Shown: positions 10,985 through 54,641, numbered from the stretch's first letter. The stretch: DNA of 62,073 nt from Candidatus Pacebacteria bacterium RIFOXYA1_FULL_38_18 (GCA_001787405.1 MFWV01000013.1:1-62073); one strand, 5' to 3'. Program-made: numbers and translations. The notes: generated by a model not told the origin, from the sequence alone.

Positions 10985-11446
10985 TTATTTAAGTTCCACT
11001 ACGCAACCAGCCTCTTCTAAGGTTTTCTTGGCGGCTTCAGCATCTTCTTTCTTGGCAGCTTCCAAAAGAGTCTTGGGAGCAGATTCCACGAAAGTTTTGG
11101 CTTCACCCAAACCAAGTTCAGGTTTCAAAACTCTGACGGCTTTGATAGCAGCGATTTTATTGGAACCACCATCTTTCAAAATGACGTCAAATTCGTCTTT
11201 TTCTTCTACTGGAGCAGCAGCGGCAGCAGCAGGCATAGCACCCATCATCATGGGAGCAGCAGCACTGACACCAAACTCATCTTCCAGAGCGGAAACGAGA
11301 TCGGAGACTTCCATCAAAGATAGTTCTTTGACAGCATCGACGATTTTTTGTACTTTGGCAGGAAGTTTTTTAGCTTCCTTGGTTTCTTTGACCTCTTCGG
11401 TCTTGGTTTCGGACTTTTCCTCGACCTTTTTAGTATCTTCGGACAT
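10985..11446 (-). CDS. rplL: 50S ribosomal protein L7/L12 with K/E-rich N-terminal extension
   Basis: ..[81 protein letters not shown]. About 30 extra N-terminal residues. Confidence 0.9.
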
Positions 11447-11485
11447 AATTTCCTTTAACTAAATACTTATTACTTTTTTGGCGGC

Positions 11486-11995
11486 TTATTCGGATTTTTG
11501 ATCACGAATGGCACGCAGAGCATAGACAAGATCTCTAGAGCCTGCTTTGAGAGCGTTAACGAGTCCAAATTGAGGTCCCTTTAACCTGATTATCAAAGTG
11601 CTAATCAATTCTTGCTTGCTTGGCAATTTGCTGAGTGCTTCAACTTCGGCTGGAGACAATACTTTGTCATCCATAAAGCCTTGTTTGATGGTCAGCTGTC
11701 CGCGATCTTCATGAAACTTGAATAATTGTTTCAGAGCGGACACGGCATCTTCATTGGAAAAGACTACGGCATTCATTCCGGTGAGGGAATCAATTAGTTT
11801 GCCTTTACCAACTGCCAAATCAATGAGAGTGTTTTTGGTAACGAACATTTCGCCACCTACTTCTTCCAGAGCTGATCTCAATGCGACTTGATCGTTCACT
11901 GAGGTGCCACTGTAGTCGAACACGACCACTGATTTTGCTTGTGCAAGCTTATTTTGTAAGATCTCGACTTGCTCCAAGTTCTTTTTACTTGGCAT
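11486..11995 (-). CDS. rplJ: 50S ribosomal protein L10
   Basis: Directly upstream of rpl[40 protein letters not shown] is an L10-like N-terminus. Confidence 0.85.
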
Positions 11996-12175
11996 AGCAA
12001 ATCCTTTTCTTTTGGCTATTACTTAAAGAGCTGTTTGAGAAGAAAGTGGAAATACAAAAAAGAGAAAAAATTCGTTTGAGTAAATTACTCAGATTGAATC
12101 TTAATTTCTCCTCGGTGTGGTATTTCACTCCGCCACGGCGGAGACACACTGTCTTCGGAAACGAAAAGTATTGTA
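11996..12175 (-). promoter_or_regulatory. candidate rplJ promoter and structured leader
   Basis: Minus strand TGATACAAT (-10 at 12170-12175). The roughly 165 nt leader contains nested helices GTGTG/CACAC around CTCCGC-CGTG-GCGGAG (12128-12150), then a weak hairpin plus a U-run. L10-leader-like by position only. Confidence 0.3.
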
Positions 12176-12186
12176 TCATTATTATC

Positions 12187-14169
12187 ATGCTATGCAACAG
12201 CTCAAGAACTTGGTGGAGTTTTTTCTTTAAATTAATCGTCATTACTGGTATCTTTTCTATTTTTTTTACCAGGTTTACTACACAAATAGAGGCCAAAGAG
12301 TACAGCATCAATTCTTTGTTAATTGAGGCAATCATTCGACCAGACGGATCGATGGAAGTTACTGAAAAGCGCCTTTATGATTTTCGTGATGATTTTGCTT
12401 TTGCTTATCAATATTTATATCATCATCCAGATCAAGCATTGGCCCCACACCGTTCAGAACCTTATGAAATCAGAATCAAAAGTATTTGTGATGAGCTCAA
12501 ATGTTATGCGTTCTTGCCTTACGATCAAGTAGATATAGACAATCGACGCAACAATCCAGCCGGTACCTTCACTGTGTTGCAAGAGACCCAAAAAACTTAT
12601 TTTCAGTGGCATTTTAAGGCTATTTTTGAACAAAAAACCTTTACTTTAAACTATGTTGTAGATAATGCCATCACTCTTCATGAAGATACAGCCGAGCTTT
12701 ATTGGCAATTTATAGGCGATGAATGGGAGGTATCACATTCCAATATTTTAATCACTGTGATTTTGCCGGAGGGAATTGACGGCGAGCAAATTTCAGCATG
12801 GATGCATGAAGTACAAGGCGGTGTCATAAATATTGTTGATGATCGTACCGTTACCTTTCAGCTGGTCAATAATCCCATTGGAAGATTTACGGAAACTAGA
12901 ATTATTTTTCCCAAAGAAGTAATGAGTGGTGGTGCAGCTGGGAGTGCTTCACGAGCATTGATTATTGATCAGGAAAATGAGTTCATTCGTCGCACCGAAC
13001 GAGCTAATCAATGGCAAAATGTACTCATTTTAATTTGGTTGGCACTGATAATTTGGGCGTGGGTAGTAGCTTTGCGAGAAGTTTATCGTTTTGTACGTCA
13101 CGATATTCAGCGCATTCCACCAGCCAACTTGGCCAATCGATTTTGGGAACCTCCTAGTGATTTGGAACCAGCTTTGGTGGAGCAATTATTGAGTGGTTCC
13201 AAAGAAATTACTGCGCGTGCTTTTACGGCTACTGCACTGTCACTGGTTCAACAAAAAGCGATGCGTATTATTCGCAGTGATGAAAAGAAAGGTTTATTTG
13301 TCAAAGATTATGAATATGGTTTCGAGCAAACCAAAAAACAAAAAAATCTAACTGAGGTTCAACAATCTGTTTTTGATTATATTTTTAAAACTATTGGCAG
13401 AAATGAAAAAGTTGTCTGGTTTACGGAATTAATCAAATATAGCAAGAAGCATAATATTACTGCCTATAATTTTATAAAAAAACTAGGCAGGACAGCTTTG
13501 GCCAGTAATGTCAAACAAGGAATGTTTGATGATAAAAAAGCTTCCAGATTTTTGACTACGCTCAAACCGCTTGGCAGACCGCTTTTGGTGGGAATTTGCT
13601 TGTTTGCGATCAGCTCAATGTTGTTAGCATTCAATCGATATTTTGAAGTTAGTTCGTTGATTTTATCGATTACACTGGGTTTGCCTTTTCAAATCTTTAT
13701 TCCTGGAATAACACTATTAATCATCGGAACCGTAAGAGACATGCCTCATCGGACAGTCAAAGGTTTAGAGGAGGCCTCTCTTTGGAAAGCTTTCAAAAAA
13801 CACATGCAGGATTATCAACAAACCAAAAAATATCCCATAGACTCGATCATTCTTTGGGAAAAATATCTAGTTTATGGTGCGTTATTTGGAGTGTCTGCCA
13901 AAACACTATCACAGTTACCAATTCAATTTAGCAGTGAAGAGTTTCAAAAAACAGCTGGTTATTGGGGAGTTCATTCGTTTGATTCAATTGGCTCAGCTAC
14001 AGCGCAGACTGCTTCTTTGGGTCAAGCTTTGGGTTCGGTTTCTTCTGCACTTTCTTCACTATCTAGCTCTACCAGCAAAAGTTTTGGTGCTTCTGGCTCT
14101 GGTTCGTCTGGCGGTTCATCTGGCGGTGGCGGAGGTGGTGGCGGCGGTGGTGGCGGCGGAGCAGGATAA
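12187..14169 (+). CDS. DUF2207-like membrane protein with poly-Gly C-terminal tail
   Basis: Signal/TM, then YSINSLLIEAIIRPDGSMEVTEKRLYDFRDDF (DUF2207-type N-domain), several TM helices, and a GSGSSGGSSGGGGGGGGGGGGGAG tail. The ORF track start at 12046 overlaps the rplJ leader, so I prefer ATG 12187. Confidence 0.55.
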   Translation: MLCNSSRTWWSFFFKLIVITGIFSIFFTRFTTQIEAKEYSINSLLIEAIIRPDGSMEVTEKRLYDFRDDFAFAYQYLYHHPDQALAPHRSEPYEIRIKSICDELKCYAFLPYDQVDIDNRRNNPAGTFTVLQETQKTYFQWHFKAIFEQKTFTLNYVVDNAITLHEDTAELYWQFIGDEWEVSHSNILITVILPEGIDGEQISAWMHEVQGGVINIVDDRTVTFQLVNNPIGRFTETRIIFPKEVMSGGAAGSASRALIIDQENEFIRRTERANQWQNVLILIWLALIIWAWVVALREVYRFVRHDIQRIPPANLANRFWEPPSDLEPALVEQLLSGSKEITARAFTATALSLVQQKAMRIIRSDEKKGLFVKDYEYGFEQTKKQKNLTEVQQSVFDYIFKTIGRNEKVVWFTELIKYSKKHNITAYNFIKKLGRTALASNVKQGMFDDKKASRFLTTLKPLGRPLLVGICLFAISSMLLAFNRYFEVSSLILSITLGLPFQIFIPGITLLIIGTVRDMPHRTVKGLEEASLWKAFKKHMQDYQQTKKYPIDSIILWEKYLVYGALFGVSAKTLSQLPIQFSSEEFQKTAGYWGVHSFDSIGSATAQTASLGQALGSVSSALSSLSSSTSKSFGASGSGSSGGSSGGGGGGGGGGGGGAG

Positions 14170-14337
14170 TCTGCCTTTTTTTCCAGGTTGGCTAATTTTC
14201 CAAAGTATTCATTTTTTATCAATTAAAAAATTGTGATACATTCTTCATCTTCAAAAGAAGTATGGAGTATGTGAAATTTTCATTTTTGAAAGAAGTGCGG
14301 AGTTTATAAACTTATACAAACGACTCATACAGACAAT

Positions 14338-14365
14338 TTGCTTTGTGAATTTTTTGAGTTACAAT
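14338..14365 (+). promoter_or_regulatory. candidate promoter of the thrS leader
   Basis: TTGCTT (14338-14343), 16 nt spacer, TACAAT (14360-14365). ATG of the mini-ORF lies 8 nt downstream. Confidence 0.4.
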
Positions 14366-14373
14366 TTGAGTCG

Positions 14374-14421
14374 ATGTTGTTTTTATTTAACTCAACCACC
14401 ACCACCGCTACTACCCGTTAG
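14374..14421 (+). CDS. Thr-rich leader peptide MLFLFNSTTTTATTR (candidate attenuator peptide for thrS)
   Basis: ATG TTG TTT TTA TTT AAC TCA ACC ACC ACC ACC GCT ACT ACC CGT TAG, read directly from the sequence. Too short for the ORF track. Confidence 0.55.
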   Translation: MLFLFNSTTTTATTR

Positions 14422-14450
14422 GGGAGGGGTGTGGTGTAAGTTAAACGCGT

Positions 14451-14480
14451 AACCCTCTCAAACTGAAGAGGGTTTTTTTA
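14451..14480 (+). terminator. intrinsic terminator inside the thrS leader
   Basis: AACCCTCT (14451-14458), 8-nt loop, AGAGGGTT (14467-14474), with a run of 7 T (14473-14479). It lies 17 nt before the thrS ORF. Confidence 0.65.
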
Positions 14481-14496
14481 TTTTAAAAATAAGCTA

Positions 14497-16335
14497 GTGA
14501 AACAGCCCAAAAAACCAAGTACAATAAAGAAAGAACATATGGCAAAACCAATAGAAAACTCAAATCAACTTTTAAAGATTCGTCACACCACAGAGCACGT
14601 TTTAACCATGGCGATGCTCAAGCTTTATGGTGCTGACAAAGTCACAATGGCCATGGGTCCAGCCACCGATGATGGTTTTTATTTTGATTTTGATAGTGAC
14701 CATGACTTCAAGATTTCTGAAACTGAGTTTCCCAAGATTGAAGCAGAAATGCAACGCATTATTGATCAGAATTTACCAATGAGTAAACAGACTATTGCCA
14801 TAAAAGAAGCTAGAAAAATGTTTGCTGGCAATGCTTATAAACAAGAGTGGTTGGATGAGATTGAAGCCAAAGGCGAAGAGGCCACTGTTTATTGGTTAGG
14901 TGAACCCGATCAAGAAAATTCATTTGTTGATCTTTGTGCCGGTCCGCATGTTGAATCTACTGGTGAAATTAAAGCATTCAAGTTATTAAGCATTGCCGGA
15001 GCCTATTGGCATGGTGATGAAAAAAATAAAATGCTGACCAGAATTTATGGCACAGCCTTTGAGTCACCAGAGGAGTTAGACAGTTACATCGTCAATTTGG
15101 AAGAAGCTAAAAAACGCGATCACCGCAAACTCGGTCGTGAACTAGACCTGTTTAGTTTTTCTGATTTAGTTGGTCCCGGCTTACCACTGTGGTCACCCAA
15201 AGGCACGATTTTGCGTAATCTTTTGGATGATTTTGTTTGGCAGTTGCGTCAGCAAAAAGGTTATTCAAAAGTAGAGATTCCGCACATTACCAAAAAAGAT
15301 TTATATGAAGTCAGCGGACATTGGGATAAATTTGGCGATGAATTGTTTCGCATGACTACCAAAGAAGGCCACGAGTTTGTATTAAAGCCAATGAATTGTC
15401 CTCATCATGCTCAAATTTATGCTCGGAAACAATTTAGTTATCGTGAAATGCCTCAACGCTATTCCAATACCACTATGGTCTATCGTGACGAACAAACAGG
15501 AGAATTGACTGGTTTATCCAGAGTACGCTCTATTACCCAAGATGACTCACACGTTTTCTGTCGTCAAAATCAAGTAACCGAAGAGGTTAATGCTGTTTGG
15601 GATATCGTAGAAAAATTTTATCAAGCGTTTGATTTTGAATTACAACCACGTTTATCTTTGCATGATCCTAAAGAATCAGAAAAATATTTGGGTAAAGAAG
15701 AGCAGTGGTTGGAAGCAGAAGAACAATTGCGAAAATTGGTTCGCGTCAGAGGTGTAGAAGCCATTGAGGCAGTGGGTGAGGCCGCTTTTTATGGTCCCAA
15801 GCTTGATTTTATGGCTTATGACTCTCTTGGTCGAGAGTGGCAAGTGGCTACTATTCAACTGGATTTTAATATGCCAGAGCGTTTTGACCTTTTTTGTATC
15901 AATGAAGTTGGAGAGCAAGAACGGATAGTAATGATTCATGTAGCTATCATGGGTTCCGTTGAGCGCTTTTTATCAATTATTATCGAGCACTTTGGAGGAG
16001 CATTCCCTGTTTGGTTAGCCCCAGTTCAAGCCAAGATTTTACCGATTGCAGACCGGCATCTTAATTATGCTCAAAAACTTAAAGAACAATTGGCAACTCA
16101 GGGCATTCGTGCCGAAATTGATGATCGTAGCGAGCGTTTGCCGGCCAAAATTCGAGATGCTCAAATGGAAAAAGTTCCTTACATGTTGACGATTGGTGAT
16201 CGTGAAATTGATAATAATCAGCTCAATGTTCGTCAACGTGATGGCTCGCAACAGACCGTGAAAGTTGAAGATTTCATCAAAGAAACGGTTGAAATTGTCA
16301 AACAAAAACGGCTGGAATCAAGTCTTTTGACCTGA
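14497..16335 (+). CDS. thrS: threonyl-tRNA synthetase lacking the N-terminal TGS domain
   Basis: HTTEHVLTMAM (editing-domain HxxxH) already at about residue 30. Class II motifs (FRMTTKEGHEFVLKPMNCPHH, RVRSITQDDSHVF, GPKLDF). Anticodon-binding C-terminus. GTG 14497 or ATG 14539 are possible starts. Confidence 0.9.
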   Translation: MKQPKKPSTIKKEHMAKPIENSNQLLKIRHTTEHVLTMAMLKLYGADKVTMAMGPATDDGFYFDFDSDHDFKISETEFPKIEAEMQRIIDQNLPMSKQTIAIKEARKMFAGNAYKQEWLDEIEAKGEEATVYWLGEPDQENSFVDLCAGPHVESTGEIKAFKLLSIAGAYWHGDEKNKMLTRIYGTAFESPEELDSYIVNLEEAKKRDHRKLGRELDLFSFSDLVGPGLPLWSPKGTILRNLLDDFVWQLRQQKGYSKVEIPHITKKDLYEVSGHWDKFGDELFRMTTKEGHEFVLKPMNCPHHAQIYARKQFSYREMPQRYSNTTMVYRDEQTGELTGLSRVRSITQDDSHVFCRQNQVTEEVNAVWDIVEKFYQAFDFELQPRLSLHDPKESEKYLGKEEQWLEAEEQLRKLVRVRGVEAIEAVGEAAFYGPKLDFMAYDSLGREWQVATIQLDFNMPERFDLFCINEVGEQERIVMIHVAIMGSVERFLSIIIEHFGGAFPVWLAPVQAKILPIADRHLNYAQKLKEQLATQGIRAEIDDRSERLPAKIRDAQMEKVPYMLTIGDREIDNNQLNVRQRDGSQQTVKVEDFIKETVEIVKQKRLESSLLT

Positions 16336-16382
16336 ACAATCAATTGAAAAATTAAAATTGATCGAGCGTAAAACGACTAGAT

Positions 16383-17567
16383 TTATTCGTCGACAGGCTC
16401 TTCAGTCAAGGCTTCTGCTTCTGCTATTTCTTGATTTTCAGTAGTTTTTGCTGACATATTTTTCAATACCAACCTATCTATGGTAAATGGAGCAGCCAAA
16501 GAAATGACTTCTAGAGTAAAAATAGATAACTCAAAAGCACTGGGAATTTGATTGGTGATAAAAAAAGCACCCAAACCAACTATTCCAGCGGTAAAAAATG
16601 TATCTTTGAGCATTTCTTTTTGAATTTCATCAATGTCTTTGGTTTCCAAACCCATCTTTTTGGCCAAATTACCTCTGCGTATAATTTTAGGAATACCGTG
16701 ATAGACCAGTACTGAGAAAGTCACAATGGCAGTAACGGTATTGAAAGTTCGATTGGGAATACTAACGTCTCCGCTAAAAATGCGAAAATCCCAACCAATC
16801 GGAAAATGTCGCACCAAAATCCAGGCTAGGAAAAAGAAAACCAATAAATAGCCAGTGGCATAATGACCCCATCGTCCGCCAAACATTTTTTGTTCAGTTG
16901 CTGATCCGCGCTGACTGCGAATAGTTCGTCTGGCGATAAAAATAATGACTTGTAAAATAAGTAAGACAATCCAGACTATCAGTAATGTTTGCCAGCCAAA
17001 ATCAGTAGTTTCAGTGACCGTTAGATAGGGGATTTTAAACCAAGTATCTTTGATGGGGTAATCTGGGTAAGGAACCCAACTGTAAAGTATTTTAGCGTCA
17101 ATTGCTTTGGAATAAAAATCTGTCAAAAACAACCGTCCTATGGAAATGTACGAAACCAATTGCATGATGAAATCTACGGCATAGAACAAGAAAGTAATGT
17201 TTCCCTGACGGAACTTCTTTTTGAGAATAAAACCTTGTTGGTCAGTACCTTTGAGTTTGGTAACGGTTTGTTGAAATTCTTTAATACTATTAGCCTTAAT
17301 CACTCTGACAAGGCGAAAGGGAATTAGTAAAAGAGTTTGAGTAACACCGAGTAGCACTACCGAGATCCACATGCTGTTGATCACGCTGTAAAACGCAAAC
17401 AAAATACTGGCATAAAATTGATAGCTCAAGCCAGAGAAAAAAGCATAGACTAGCAAGATAATGGCCGTGATAGAAACAATAGTGCTGAAAGTGGGTAGGT
17501 TGACATGAGAACTGATTCTGGAATCACGAGTTAGGGGTAGTTGGTTTCCAAATTGGCTTTCAGTCAT
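16383..17567 (-). CDS. multi-pass membrane protein, possibly a divergent YidC/Oxa1-family insertase
   Basis: WISVVLLGVTQTLLLIPFRLVRVIKANSIKEFQQTVTKLKG..KKKFRQGNITFLFYAVDFIMQLVSYISIGRLF parallels the YidC core TM1, amphipathic hairpin and TM2. The match is weak. Confidence 0.4.
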   Translation of the reverse strand: MTESQFGNQLPLTRDSRISSHVNLPTFSTIVSITAIILLVYAFFSGLSYQFYASILFAFYSVINSMWISVVLLGVTQTLLLIPFRLVRVIKANSIKEFQQTVTKLKGTDQQGFILKKKFRQGNITFLFYAVDFIMQLVSYISIGRLFLTDFYSKAIDAKILYSWVPYPDYPIKDTWFKIPYLTVTETTDFGWQTLLIVWIVLLILQVIIFIARRTIRSQRGSATEQKMFGGRWGHYATGYLLVFFFLAWILVRHFPIGWDFRIFSGDVSIPNRTFNTVTAIVTFSVLVYHGIPKIIRRGNLAKKMGLETKDIDEIQKEMLKDTFFTAGIVGLGAFFITNQIPSAFELSIFTLEVISLAAPFTIDRLVLKNMSAKTTENQEIAEAEALTEEPVDE

Positions 17568-17612
17568 GTGAGAAGATTATTGTACAGCACTAGGTAGAAA
17601 GAAAGGGTGGAT

Positions 17613-18167
17613 TTAATTTGGTTTTTTTAAATAGAAGAATCTATTTTCTTTTTTACCCAAAAACTCAAAACCAAATTGTTGATAAATTTTTTGGGCGACT
17701 GAATTTCCTGAAGCAGTACTCAGCCACACATTTTCTTTGGAATTAGTTTGCCAAAAATGAGCAAAAGTCTTTTTCAGCAATGGAAGAGAGAGTCTCTTAC
17801 CACGCGCATTTTGATAGAGGCGGATACCCAATGTCCAATGACTGGGTTCGATCAATAAAAGCGAATCAGTAATCAAGTTTTCTACGGACAATAATTCATG
17901 AGAAAACCAGACAAGACCTGATAATTCATTTGGTTTTTCTTTGGGTGTAAGAATATAAATGATTCGTGGGCCAGCTAGCCAGGTTTTTAGTTTTTGGAGA
18001 GTAGAAAAACGTTGGGGATCAGAAGTAAATTTGGCAAGCAAGGGATCATTTTTGACAGCCGTCATTATTTGTTGCTGGTGAATCTCACGCAATCCTTGCC
18101 ACAAACTAAATTGATTGCCTATTTGATCAGTTATACAACCAGCACAAATTAAACTTATTTTTTGCAC
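17613..18167 (-). CDS. GNAT-family N-acetyltransferase (tentative)
   Basis: YQNARGKRLSLPLLKKTFAHFW..VAQKIYQQFGFEFLG resembles GNAT motif A and the C-terminal beta-strand. Confidence 0.45.
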   Translation of the reverse strand: MQKISLICAGCITDQIGNQFSLWQGLREIHQQQIMTAVKNDPLLAKFTSDPQRFSTLQKLKTWLAGPRIIYILTPKEKPNELSGLVWFSHELLSVENLITDSLLLIEPSHWTLGIRLYQNARGKRLSLPLLKKTFAHFWQTNSKENVWLSTASGNSVAQKIYQQFGFEFLGKKENRFFYLKKPN

Positions 18168-18218
18168 AGCATTATTCTAACCCAATTTAAATTTGATAGG
18201 AAAATTGAAAAAAGCGTG

Positions 18219-18974
18219 TTAAACGCTTTCAATGTCTACTTTTACCCCAGGTCCCATTGTGGGAGAAAGAATTACACGCACCGCCCTGCCCTTTAGAGCA
18301 TTTAGCAAAGTACGTAAATTCTCGATTAGTTTCTTTGTTTCCATAGAAGTTTTTCCTAAGGGAAGATGAATTAAAGGTTGTTTTTTTTCGGATTTTAAAA
18401 TCTGTTTGCCAGCTGCCAATTCTTTAATTGCTTGAGCTGGATTGGTAGTCAAAGTGCCGTTTTTGGGGTTAGGCATTAAGCCTTTTGGTCCCAATAATTT
18501 AGCGTGTTTGGCCAATTTGGGCATGAATTCTGGAGAACTAACCAAAACATCAAAATCAATCTTACCCGCCTCAATTTCTTTCAAAACTTGTTCGTCAACT
18601 ACAACCACTTTGCGTTGTTGACCGGTAGAGTGGGGTAGAGTGACCTCCACGCTAACATCTGTATTTTTTACTTCAATATCAGCATTGATCGTACCTTCAA
18701 ATTTGCTATAAGAAAGTTTTTTGACCAATTCTATGGCAGATAATGCGTCATATTGACGAGTTCGATCCACTTTTGACTTGACTGCTTGGTATTTTTTGCT
18801 CCTCACTTTTTGAATTTTAGGTTTAACTGTTTTCTCAACTGGTTGATTTTCTGAATCAGAATTTTGGTTGGTTTGGTTTGTTGCTTGATTATCGCCAACT
18901 TTTTTTTCTGGATCAGTGACGATCTTTACCTTCATTTCTTTGCTGGACATATCAACATTTTTGGTAGTACCCAT
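18219..18974 (-). CDS. rplA: 50S ribosomal protein L1 with about 55-aa low-complexity N-terminal extension
   Basis: SKKYQAVKSKVDRTRQYDALSAIELVKKLSYSKFEGTINADIEV..LGPKGLMPNPKNGT. Confidence 0.9.
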   Translation of the reverse strand: MGTTKNVDMSSKEMKVKIVTDPEKKVGDNQATNQTNQNSDSENQPVEKTVKPKIQKVRSKKYQAVKSKVDRTRQYDALSAIELVKKLSYSKFEGTINADIEVKNTDVSVEVTLPHSTGQQRKVVVVDEQVLKEIEAGKIDFDVLVSSPEFMPKLAKHAKLLGPKGLMPNPKNGTLTTNPAQAIKELAAGKQILKSEKKQPLIHLPLGKTSMETKKLIENLRTLLNALKGRAVRVILSPTMGPGVKVDIESV

Positions 18975-18996
18975 AGTTTCCTTTAAAAATATTTAA

Positions 18997-19422
18997 TTAT
19001 TCTTGAATTTTGACACCCATACTGCGTGCTGTGCCCTTGATGGTTTTGATAGCCTGATCCAAATTATTAGTATTAAGATCCGGCATTTTTTTCTCTGCAA
19101 TTTGTTTTATTTGTTTGTTTGTCAGGGTCCCAACGACCTCGGTTTTGGGAGTGCTACTGCCTTTTTTGAGTTTTAATTCTTGTTTGATCAAATCAGAAAC
19201 TGGTGGCAGTTTGAGAACAAAATCAAAAGATTTGTCTTTATAGATAGTCAATTCAGCAGGAATAATTTGACCGCGTTGATCTTTGGTAGCGTCATTGTAC
19301 TGTTTCAAAAACTCCATCATGTTGATGCCAGCTCCGCCCAAAATAGGACCAATGGGAGGGGCGGGAGTAGCACTACCGGCTGGTAAATTGAGCTTAATGA
19401 TTTTTTCGACTTTTTTTGCCAT
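18997..19422 (-). CDS. rplK: 50S ribosomal protein L11
   Basis: MAKKVEKIIKLNLPAGSATPAPPIGPILGGAGINMMEFLKQYN. Confidence 0.95.
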   Translation of the reverse strand: MAKKVEKIIKLNLPAGSATPAPPIGPILGGAGINMMEFLKQYNDATKDQRGQIIPAELTIYKDKSFDFVLKLPPVSDLIKQELKLKKGSSTPKTEVVGTLTNKQIKQIAEKKMPDLNTNNLDQAIKTIKGTARSMGVKIQE

Positions 19423-21989: not shown

Positions 21990-22062
21990 GCCTTTGTAGC
22001 TCAGTTGGTAGAGCGCAGTCTTGGTAAGACTGAGGTCTCGGGTTCGATCCCCGACAAAGGCT
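21990..22062 (+). tRNA. tRNA-Thr (anticodon GGU)
   Basis: GCCTTTG/CAAAGGC acceptor stem, anticodon loop TTGGTAA, T-loop TTCGATC. Confidence 0.95.
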
Positions 22063-22102
22063 CATTTTCGAGTATACTTTCCAGTAGACTCGCCATAAAT
22101 AA

Positions 22103-54527: not shown

Positions 54528-54584
54528 TTAATAAATTCATTCGATTGTTAACCGCTCTTTATCCAAACCAGCTATAATCAAATT

Positions 54585-54641
54585 ATGGCAAAGTTTTTTA
54601 GAGGTGTTGTTTTTAAAATGCTTGATTGGACTACTTTATGA
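54585..54641 (+). CDS. candidate 18-codon upstream ORF coupled to cysS (MAKFFRGVVFKMLDWTTL)
   Basis: ATG lies 6 nt after TATAAT (54573-54578). Its TGA overlaps the cysS ATG (ATGA at 54638-54641). No SD before cysS. Confidence 0.3.
   Translation: MAKFFRGVVFKMLDWTTL

Follow-up and report, generated by a model that had tools for sequence, protein, structure and literature searches.

The stretch of DNA considered here, 62,073 nucleotides (nt) from Candidatus Pacebacteria bacterium RIFOXYA1_FULL_38_18 (hereafter the window, with positions counted 5' to 3' from its first letter), carries thrS, the gene for a threonyl-tRNA synthetase (ThrRS), preceded by a gene for a DUF2207 membrane protein (12046/12187-14169). 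The intergenic region between the two, 14170-14538, holds a short open reading frame (ORF) full of Thr codons, followed by a G/U-rich tract and an intrinsic terminator. A sequence-only reading of this DNA took the arrangement for a leader-peptide attenuator of thrS, with alternative hairpins in the 1:2 / 2:3 / 3:4 order, and this candidate attenuator is the subject of what follows. Its parts, with thrS and the tRNA that reads the Thr codons, are:

14338-14343, + strand: weak -35-like TTGCTT of the putative promoter P1, with a 16-nt spacer to the -10 box
14360-14365, + strand: -10 box TACAAT of promoter P1, 8 nt 5' of the leader ATG
14374-14421, + strand: leader ORF, 15 codons and TAG, encoding MLFLFNSTTTTATTR
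14395-14415, + strand: control codons ACC ACC ACC ACC GCT ACT ACC, also the 5' arm (segment 1) of hairpin P1
14387-14444, + strand: predicted hairpin P1 (1:2, the 'protector'), outer helix 14387-14392:14439-14444, core 14397-14417:14425-14436
14421-14436, + strand: segment 2, the G/U-rich tract GGGGAGGGGTGTGGTG, whose 3' part pairs with the Thr codons
14422-14459, + strand: predicted antiterminator (2:3), GGGAGGG 14422-14428 : CCCUCUC 14453-14459, enclosing a small internal hairpin
14451-14479, + strand: intrinsic terminator (3:4), AACCCTCT 14451-14458, 8-nt loop, AGAGGGTT 14467-14474, T7 14473-14479
14539-16335, + strand: thrS, encoding a 598-aa threonyl-tRNA synthetase (Pfam PF07973, PF00587, PF03129); homologues align from residue 1
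21990-22063, + strand: tRNA-Thr(GGU), found by ARAGORN and Rfam, which reads ACC and ACU, that is, all six control codons

The start of thrS needs a comment. GTG 14497, where the ORF begins mechanically, is ruled out as the start, because close homologues align from residue 1 at ATG 14539. The sequence-only reading relied on that GTG when it put the terminator 17 nt before thrS, which is wrong; since the homologues begin at ATG 14539, the gap between terminator and gene is 59 nt.

A putative leader peptide rich in threonine

The 15-codon ORF that had been proposed from ATG 14374 to TAG 14421 can be read directly in the sequence: ATG TTG TTT TTA TTT AAC TCA ACC ACC ACC ACC GCT ACT ACC CGT TAG. 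Thr occupies six of seven consecutive codons (ACC five times, ACT once), clustered, as had been noticed, in a short ORF 5' of thrS. All six are ACY and would be read by tRNA-Thr(GGU), whose gene does begin at 21990 as was thought, and the charged form of this tRNA is the presumed signal. Over the whole window, on both strands, the thrS leader is the only mini-ORF with at least four identical residues in six that is followed by a terminator. The leader Thr codons are not rare ones. ACY makes up 85% of those in 23 leaders and 74% of those in the window's genes, a preference that would also favor base pairing with the G/U tract. An ORF in the +1 frame that begins with GTG and encodes ...QPPPP... 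(14345-14452) was dropped as a candidate, since ACT and ACA codons in relatives destroy the poly-Pro; it reads as a by-product of the ACC run.

Searches for ThrRS homologues gave 160 loci, every one from Patescibacteria (the Candidate Phyla Radiation, CPR), and the nearest relatives, at 70-80% identity, are Candidatus Pacebacteria metagenome-assembled genomes and metagenome contigs. The comparative set consists of 134 non-redundant Patescibacteria thrS loci, and a mini-ORF was counted if it started with ATG, had at least four identical residues in six, and lay within 300 nt 5' of thrS. Thr mini-ORFs of this kind occur on the sense strand in 30 of the 134 loci and on the antisense strand in none, while every other amino acid gives at most 3 loci. 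The arrangement is found in Pacebacteria, Paceibacterota, Brennerbacteria, Roizmanbacteria and other lineages, with the same order of parts: -10 box, ATG, mini-ORF of 9-21 codons with a Thr run, stop, G/U tract, terminator. The four nearest loci of the reference-genome set (L001-L004) share these ordered parts, and so do many distant loci.

The conservation check that had been suggested with the sequence-only reading thus came out in its favor. Many thrS loci of Patescibacteria keep the mini-ORF, the Thr run, the frame and the position of the stop, while the rest of the primary sequence is unrelated (example peptides are MLIRLSLAATTTTR, MKSLIVITTNTTTL, MKLLHIVTTTTTTSP, MQNQSLTTTTTTSS and MKTTTTISC). 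A stricter pattern, run over both strands of 907,693 bp of related DNA, found 24 matches, 20 of them Thr leaders 5' of thrS; among the other four are two Phe leaders (at DAHP synthase and prephenate dehydratase) and one Phe-rich ORF at a contig end.

It may be objected that one is looking at a chance ORF beside a terminator that belongs to DUF2207, the gene upstream. With its 15 codons the mini-ORF is very short, after all, and AT-rich intergenic DNA is rich in ATGs and -10-like hexamers. However, the DUF2207 gene already has a terminator-like hairpin of its own, at 14161-14174, directly 3' of its stop codon. Chance would also have to account for an enrichment that is confined to Thr and to one strand (30 sense, 0 antisense, 3 or fewer for any other amino acid) and for a pattern that is unique within the window, with a background rate near zero. 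Nor are the comparative matches assembly duplicates of one locus, for they differ in sequence. The probability left to chance is close to negligible: the observation is real and non-random.

Transcription of the leader would begin at promoter P1. TACAAT does lie where it had been noted, at 14360-14365, 8 nt ahead of ATG 14374, and the transcription start predicted from it, at about 14372-14374, would give a transcript with no 5' leader or one of 1-2 nt. The same geometry recurs among the 23 non-redundant terminator-type leaders, here called class A: in 19 of 22 a hexamer with at most one mismatch from TATAAT lies 6-11 nt 5' of the leader start codon, often preceded by TGTG, whereas random ATGs have such a hexamer in 3.6% of cases. 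Of the 63 long ORFs in the window, 23 share this geometry, with a TATAAT-like box 4-13 nt 5' of an in-frame ATG (e.g. ATGs 25388, 44304, 3896, 9044 and 30010), so that leaderless transcription appears to be usual in this organism and leaderless mRNAs appear to be common. The promoter geometry fits the earlier idea that the leader peptide is translated from a leaderless mRNA.

Predicted competing hairpins in the leader RNA

Folded without constraint, the leader RNA gives hairpin P1, with the Thr codons as its 5' arm and the G/U tract as its 3' arm, and the terminator. Hairpin P1 has a total energy of -23.2 kcal/mol and holds TAG 14419-14421 in its apical loop. The pairing that had been foreseen between the ACC tract and the G tract is present in this minimum free energy (MFE) fold, CACCAC 14397-14402 with GUGGUG 14431-14436. 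The intrinsic terminator, too, is where it had been placed, at 14451-14479 with its T7, between the leader ORF and thrS, and it is the strongest terminator-like site within 11000-19000.

The switch, if there is one, depends on the 5' part of segment 2. This part (14422-14428) resembles the 3' arm of the terminator and is able to pair with the terminator's 5' arm, giving an antiterminator predicted at -14.3 kcal/mol, as against -11.1 kcal/mol for the terminator; in silico the two are mutually exclusive. That such a 2:3 pairing exists had been claimed correctly, while the register given for it, 14424-14429:14454-14459, does not stand, since the model prefers 14422-14428:14453-14459 (7 bp), 2 nt away.

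A ribosome was modeled as an unpaired footprint extending from -18 to +12 around the codon in the A site. With the A site at Thr codon 11, the antiterminator becomes the MFE structure. The modeled probability of the terminator in the window, P(terminator), is:

Free RNA: 0.91
A site on successive Thr codons: 0.81, 0.52, 0.19, 0.01, 0.19, 0.90
A site on the stop codon: 0.91

Masked folds had been suggested as a check, and they behave as an attenuator should: a mask over the Thr codons flips the terminator to the antiterminator, and a mask over the stop codon restores the terminator. The 1:2 hairpin overlaps the control codons and has the stop codon in its loop, and in the model stalling would free segment 2. 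When the 29-nt spacer 14422-14450 alone was shuffled 300 times, with dinucleotides kept (and hence its G-richness), equal antitermination was reached in just 1-2% of the shuffles.

The same design is found in the relatives. In 23 of 23 class A leaders the Thr run forms the 5' arm of hairpin P1 and the stop codon falls within its apical loop or next to it, and in the first 15 of them the terminator lies 25-37 nt past the leader stop codon. Because each locus has its own terminator sequence, the pairings were tested without an alignment, by comparing the duplex energy of partner strands taken from the same locus (cognate) with that of strands taken from other loci (non-cognate), n=23:

1:2 pairing: cognate -16.7, non-cognate -14.2 kcal/mol, permutation p=2e-5
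2:3 pairing: cognate -14.0, non-cognate -11.1 kcal/mol, permutation p=2e-5
3:4 pairing: cognate -15.2, non-cognate -9.6 kcal/mol, permutation p=2e-5

All three pairings covary: each is better within a locus than between loci, so that the proposed alternative structures exceed their controls here as they do in the shuffles. An earlier version of the 2:3 test, with 15 loci, had given p=1e-4.

The thermodynamic switch extends to the relatives as well. When the mask model was applied to the 23 leaders, P(terminator) averaged 0.86 for free RNA. At the most effective Thr stall the mean was 0.21, with 0.1 or less in 16 of the leaders, and with the ribosome placed on the stop codon it was 0.97. The stall codons that abolish the terminator coincide with Thr codons: mean P(terminator) was 0.37 for stalls at Thr codons versus 0.72 for stalls at other codons. 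In two loci (L003 and L044) the antiterminator is the MFE structure even without constraint.

One might suppose instead that the leader controls the translation of thrS or the stability of its mRNA, in the manner of an upstream ORF (uORF), with no regulated termination of transcription. Translational control through stalling within a uORF is known, and a third group of Patescibacteria thrS leaders (class C: L036, L037, L049, L055 and L064) offers something of the kind. In these a Thr run is followed by a stop-in-loop hairpin of the form ACC-CCN-stop-GGGG, no intrinsic terminator is obvious, and the leaders may work at the level of translation or have a terminator of non-canonical form. The window, however, has a canonical intrinsic terminator with T7, 59 nt 5' of the thrS start, and 117 nt separate its leader stop from the ATG of thrS, too great a distance for coupling. 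The chance that the window's leader works as a uORF of this type is very small.

A model for the attenuation of thrS

I propose that the thrS leader works by ribosome-mediated attenuation of transcription through a leader peptide: it would sense charged tRNA-Thr and govern how much read-through reaches thrS. The anatomy of the sequence, its comparison with relatives and the modeled folds make this highly probable, and those refutation tests that could be carried out in silico support the 1:2 / 2:3 / 3:4 logic of the sequence-only reading.

The model would work as follows. Transcription from promoter P1 would start essentially at the leader AUG, and a 70S ribosome would load onto the leaderless mRNA. 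If Thr-tRNA(Thr) is plentiful, the ribosome would pass the six ACY codons and reach TAG 14419-14421, directly against the G tract. There it would cover segment 2, or else, after its release, hairpin P1 would re-form and sequester segment 2. In either case segments 3 and 4 would be left free to form the terminator, and the transcript would end near 14480. If charged tRNA-Thr is scarce, through low Thr or low ThrRS activity, the ribosome would stall on 14395-14415 and hold segment 1 single-stranded, so that 14422-14436 would stay free. Then 14422-14428 would pair with 14453-14459 before segment 4 is synthesized, no terminator would form, and RNA polymerase would go on to thrS. With charged tRNA-Thr as its signal, the loop would also report the activity of ThrRS itself.

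There is a complication between the terminator and the gene:

14498-14525, + strand: P2, a second promoter-like element for thrS, TGAAAC, 16 nt, TACAAT, with its -10 box 13 nt before the thrS ATG

A scan with a promoter consensus has a match at 14497-14525. The block AAAA(A/C)(C/T)CAAGTACAAT is conserved in the window and in three related loci (L001, L002 and L081), only its fifth and sixth bases varying (in L001), with TG(A/G)AAC 16 nt upstream; the copy in L081 is at about 1165-1192. A -10-like box lies 3-14 nt before the thrS ATG in 10 of the 23 class A loci. The P2 block looks like a second (basal) promoter of thrS or a site for a regulator. With this block placed 3' of the terminator and ahead of thrS, probably no more than part of the gene's transcription is subject to the attenuator, and I infer a dual arrangement: P2, probably constitutive, would provide basal expression, and the attenuator would add an inducible boost by read-through from P1 under Thr starvation.

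P2 lends itself to another view, that promoter P1, the leader and the terminator make up an independent short transcript, a small RNA (sRNA) or micropeptide gene with no effect in cis, and that thrS is transcribed from P2 only. A P2-like block is conserved, after all, and is the sole upstream element in L081; the -10 boxes just before thrS in 10 of 23 related loci could be read in the same way; and trans-acting sRNAs derived from attenuators are known (rnTrpL, PMC6614838). It is hard to see, though, why such a unit should stay with thrS while the 5' neighbors change (DUF2207 in the window, tRNA-Val elsewhere), or why nothing in the peptide but its Thr run should be conserved. A 2:3 antiterminator that covaries with the terminator would have no purpose in a simple terminated sRNA gene, and several relatives (e.g. 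L001) retain a Shine-Dalgarno sequence for thrS that would be absent from P2 transcripts. I consider an independent transcript unlikely.

Several observations count against attenuation as proposed, or limit it. With a promoter-like block conserved between the terminator and thrS, the gene could be transcribed without read-through. L081, the closest relative (80% identity in ThrRS), keeps the P2 block and lacks the leader, so the attenuator is dispensable. In the window the antiterminator helix has only 7 bp, one of them a G-U pair, and a stall at the first or last Thr codon hardly alters the terminator (0.81 and 0.90). In 5 of the 23 leaders the terminator stays above 0.6 under stalling in the equilibrium model, and these five would need kinetic trapping. 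When 21 leaders were aligned with plain MAFFT and given to RNAalifold, no more than 4 terminator pairs came out, since indels put the hairpin arms out of register; the covariation rests on the alignment-free test rather than on column-wise statistics of the R-scape type. Support throughout comes from sequence, comparison and equilibrium folding.

The place in L081 that matches the leader, at about 1100-1135, reads AGTACTACTGGTGGTACT, an ACU-ACU / GGU-GGU palindrome, which might be what is left of the Thr-run hairpin after decay.

Comparison with known systems

The mechanism itself is of a known kind, classical ribosome-mediated attenuation. At gathering thresholds, Rfam finds five tRNA genes elsewhere in the window and nothing at the leader locus. 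At a relaxed threshold the leader scores 16.4 bits with Thr_leader (RF00506) and 19.8 bits with Phe_leader (RF01859), both below the gathering score of 55. It bears a weak resemblance to these two families and is a sequence or structure member of neither.

E. coli thrL controls Thr biosynthesis (thrABC) by means of mixed Thr and Ile codons in a leader ORF that is leadered and dependent on a Shine-Dalgarno sequence. The window's leader resembles it (RF00506) in having a short leader peptide with clustered Thr codons, 1:2 / 2:3 / 3:4 hairpins and an intrinsic terminator, and in that it would sense charged tRNA-Thr through the position of the ribosome. It differs in that its target would be a synthetase gene, in relying on Thr codons alone, and in its apparent lack of a 5' leader.

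Attenuation of a synthetase gene through leader codons for its own amino acid has precedents. E. coli pheST is a case of classical leader-peptide attenuation of an aminoacyl-tRNA synthetase (aaRS) gene. Leader-peptide attenuation has been described for trpS and leuS in Streptomyces (PMC1262725), in an article that also cites pheST of E. coli. The leader in the window would belong with pheM-pheST and with Streptomyces trpS and leuS in this respect, and it differs from them in amino acid and phylum, in being more compact, in having its stop codon in the apical loop of hairpin P1, abutting the antiterminator strand, and in the putative second promoter 3' of its terminator. For hisS paralogues in Bacillus, leader-peptide attenuation has been established or predicted, and a switch of sensor between lineages has been described (PMC2965389).

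A precedent at thrS itself comes from RNA-seq of Streptomyces lividans, which led to leader-peptide attenuators being put forward for alaS, trpS, leuS and thrS (PMC8079986). In strain TK24 the 'thrL' 5' of thrS is a leaderless short ORF, proposed to be Thr-dependent; its peptide, MKRVRPFLETTPGFVPAR, has two Thr only, and the authors saw no clear Rho-independent terminator (PMC8079986). In the window's leader, by contrast, there are six Thr codons, the terminator is canonical and the antiterminator defined, and the comparative support is broad. The sequence-only reading knew of no Thr-leader attenuator described for thrS. That needs qualifying in view of the weak S. lividans case, and it appears to hold for CPR/Patescibacteria, for which full-text literature searches on leader peptides and attenuation, not exhaustive ones, returned no description.

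Leaderless mycobacterial short ORFs of the poly-Cys type attenuate downstream operons in response to Cys, according to a preprint (bioRxiv 10.1101/834739). As described there, they are, as is predicted for the window's leader, short ORFs at the very 5' end of a leaderless transcript with a run of codons for one amino acid, and they differ in sensing Cys, in controlling Cys-related operons and in being actinobacterial. Three things about the window's leader appear to be new: that it is a robust example at thrS, that it is widely conserved among Patescibacteria, and that its layout is compact and apparently leaderless, with a putative second promoter downstream.

Firmicutes thrS is under the control of a T-box riboswitch, which reads tRNA by RNA-RNA contact and needs no translation, and E. 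coli ThrRS regulates itself through RNA mimicry. The T-box (RF00230) of Firmicutes thrS has the same genomic position as the leader and much the same outcome, uncharged tRNA-Thr leading to antitermination and more ThrRS. One may ask, then, whether the window's RNA senses directly, with uncharged tRNA-Thr contacting an ACC specifier in T-box fashion or with ThrRS binding the hairpin as it does the E. coli operator. There is a Patescibacteria precedent for the former: L020 has a divergent T-box, AAUUCGGGUGGAACCG, with a terminator, 5' of thrS (2773-2950). A local search scores it at 37.9 bits (E=4.7e-7), where the gathering score is 93. A similar motif occurs in L021 and L038, which probably also carry a divergent T-box at thrS. 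The window, however, shows no T-box features: with L020 as positive control, a search for RF00230, with its Stem I, specifier loop and conserved GGGUGGNACCGCG, found no match in 14100-14620 even at E<=10. The Thr triplets, moreover, are always in frame with an ATG 6-11 nt past a -10 box and with a stop in the loop of hairpin P1, and no anticodon-arm-like loop appears to be conserved. The chance of direct sensing is smaller even than that of uORF-type control. A T-box search of 16 loci without a leader gave nothing above the gathering score. Given the T-box at thrS in L020, it seems that the same gene has either a T-box or a leader peptide, according to lineage.

Other leaders in Patescibacteria

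A second class of thrS leader occurs in Shapirobacteria/Woesebacteria-like genomes (L018 550-606, L022 76-126, L041 2846-2893, L054 2854-2907, L057 2796-2852, L076 2890-2943, L099 and L130). The peptides mostly end in ...T-T-S-P-(D/N)-R-A-stop, and the last codons together with the stop make up the whole 5' arm of a long terminator-like hairpin (GCCCGACAGGGCA...UGCUUUGAUUCGGGC and a U-rich tail). Such a terminator would be blocked directly by a ribosome halted at the Thr codons next to it, and no separate antiterminator would be involved.

In three loci 0-3 nt separate the end of a tRNA-Val(GAC) gene from the leader AUG (L022, 1-75; L041, 2769-2843; L057, 2719-2796), and 3' processing of the tRNA could itself create a leaderless mRNA where tRNA and leader abut. 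In L025 a tRNA-Val ends 19 nt before a leader ATG that has its own TACAAT box. L027 and L078 have a tRNA-Val 5' of thrS, and no leader was detected there.

Phe-rich leaderless mini-ORFs are found 5' of DAHP synthase (PF00793; L034 5844-5906, MIYKVKTGFYFTFFASQTGR) and 5' of prephenate dehydratase (PF00800; L078 1888-1962, MKITNKIFYSKFFFFNFQKEEVIL). In both the G-rich end of the ORF is complementary to the terminator that comes next. Because Phe leaders precede these two genes, leader-peptide attenuation seems to be a general device of Patescibacteria.

A broader proposition can be put forward, with odds only a little better than even: promoter-adjacent leaderless leader-peptide attenuators may form a phylum-wide and so far undescribed system of Patescibacteria, one that takes in at least three thrS architectures as well as the Phe leaders at genes of aromatic amino acids. 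The thrS architectures appear to be the classical 1:2 / 2:3 / 3:4 type, a type with the 5' arm of the terminator inside the leader ORF, where the ribosome would serve as antiterminator, and a type with no terminator.

Patescibacteria make up a large share of bacterial diversity and are mostly uncultured and dependent on hosts for amino acids. To my knowledge, almost nothing is known of their gene regulation, and a conserved, interpretable cis-regulator of an essential synthetase would give a concrete handle on it. If the proposition is true, then these ultrasmall host-dependent bacteria read their supply of amino acids through a tight coupling of transcription to translation. The model predicts that their cells couple the two processes, initiate on leaderless mRNAs and monitor charged tRNA-Thr. 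Few aaRS genes are listed as being under leader-peptide control, and thrS would join them as a well-supported case for Thr, at a gene where T-box and leader-peptide sensors would be exchanged lineage by lineage. The leader is also a candidate for a new RNA family, absent from Rfam, which could improve the annotation of CPR genomes.

Other features of the window

The ThrRS of the window has the SAD editing motif, the class II core and the anticodon-binding domain, and by Pfam domain assignment the N-terminal TGS domain is absent, as the sequence-only reading had said. Other products encoded in the window include ribosomal protein L10, a MurD-like ligase, PBP2, topoisomerase I, CysRS and further housekeeping proteins. 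Since the window encodes such proteins and the ThrRS relatives are all from CPR, it comes from a cellular CPR genome.

thrS and cysS are the only aaRS genes in the window, and a Cys leader sought at cysS was not found. Ahead of cysS (ATG 54638) there is an ORF of 18 codons, 54585-54641, encoding MAKFFRGVVFKMLDWTTL, with TATAAT (54573-54578) 6 nt before it. The TGA of this ORF overlaps the cysS ATG (ATGA). As the ORF has no Cys codons, it is more likely a uORF for translational coupling than an attenuator.

Upstream of the thrS leader, 55-105 nt 5' of its -10 box, there is a 14-nt direct repeat, AAGAAGTATGGAGT (14255-14268) and AAGAAGTGCGGAGT (14290-14303), the copies being identical at 12 of 14 positions and 35 nt apart. 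It may be a protein-binding site or due to chance. Farther upstream, the C-terminus of the DUF2207 protein (encoded by 14100-14169) is a long Gly/Ser-rich tail of low complexity, with repeats of GGTGGCGG...

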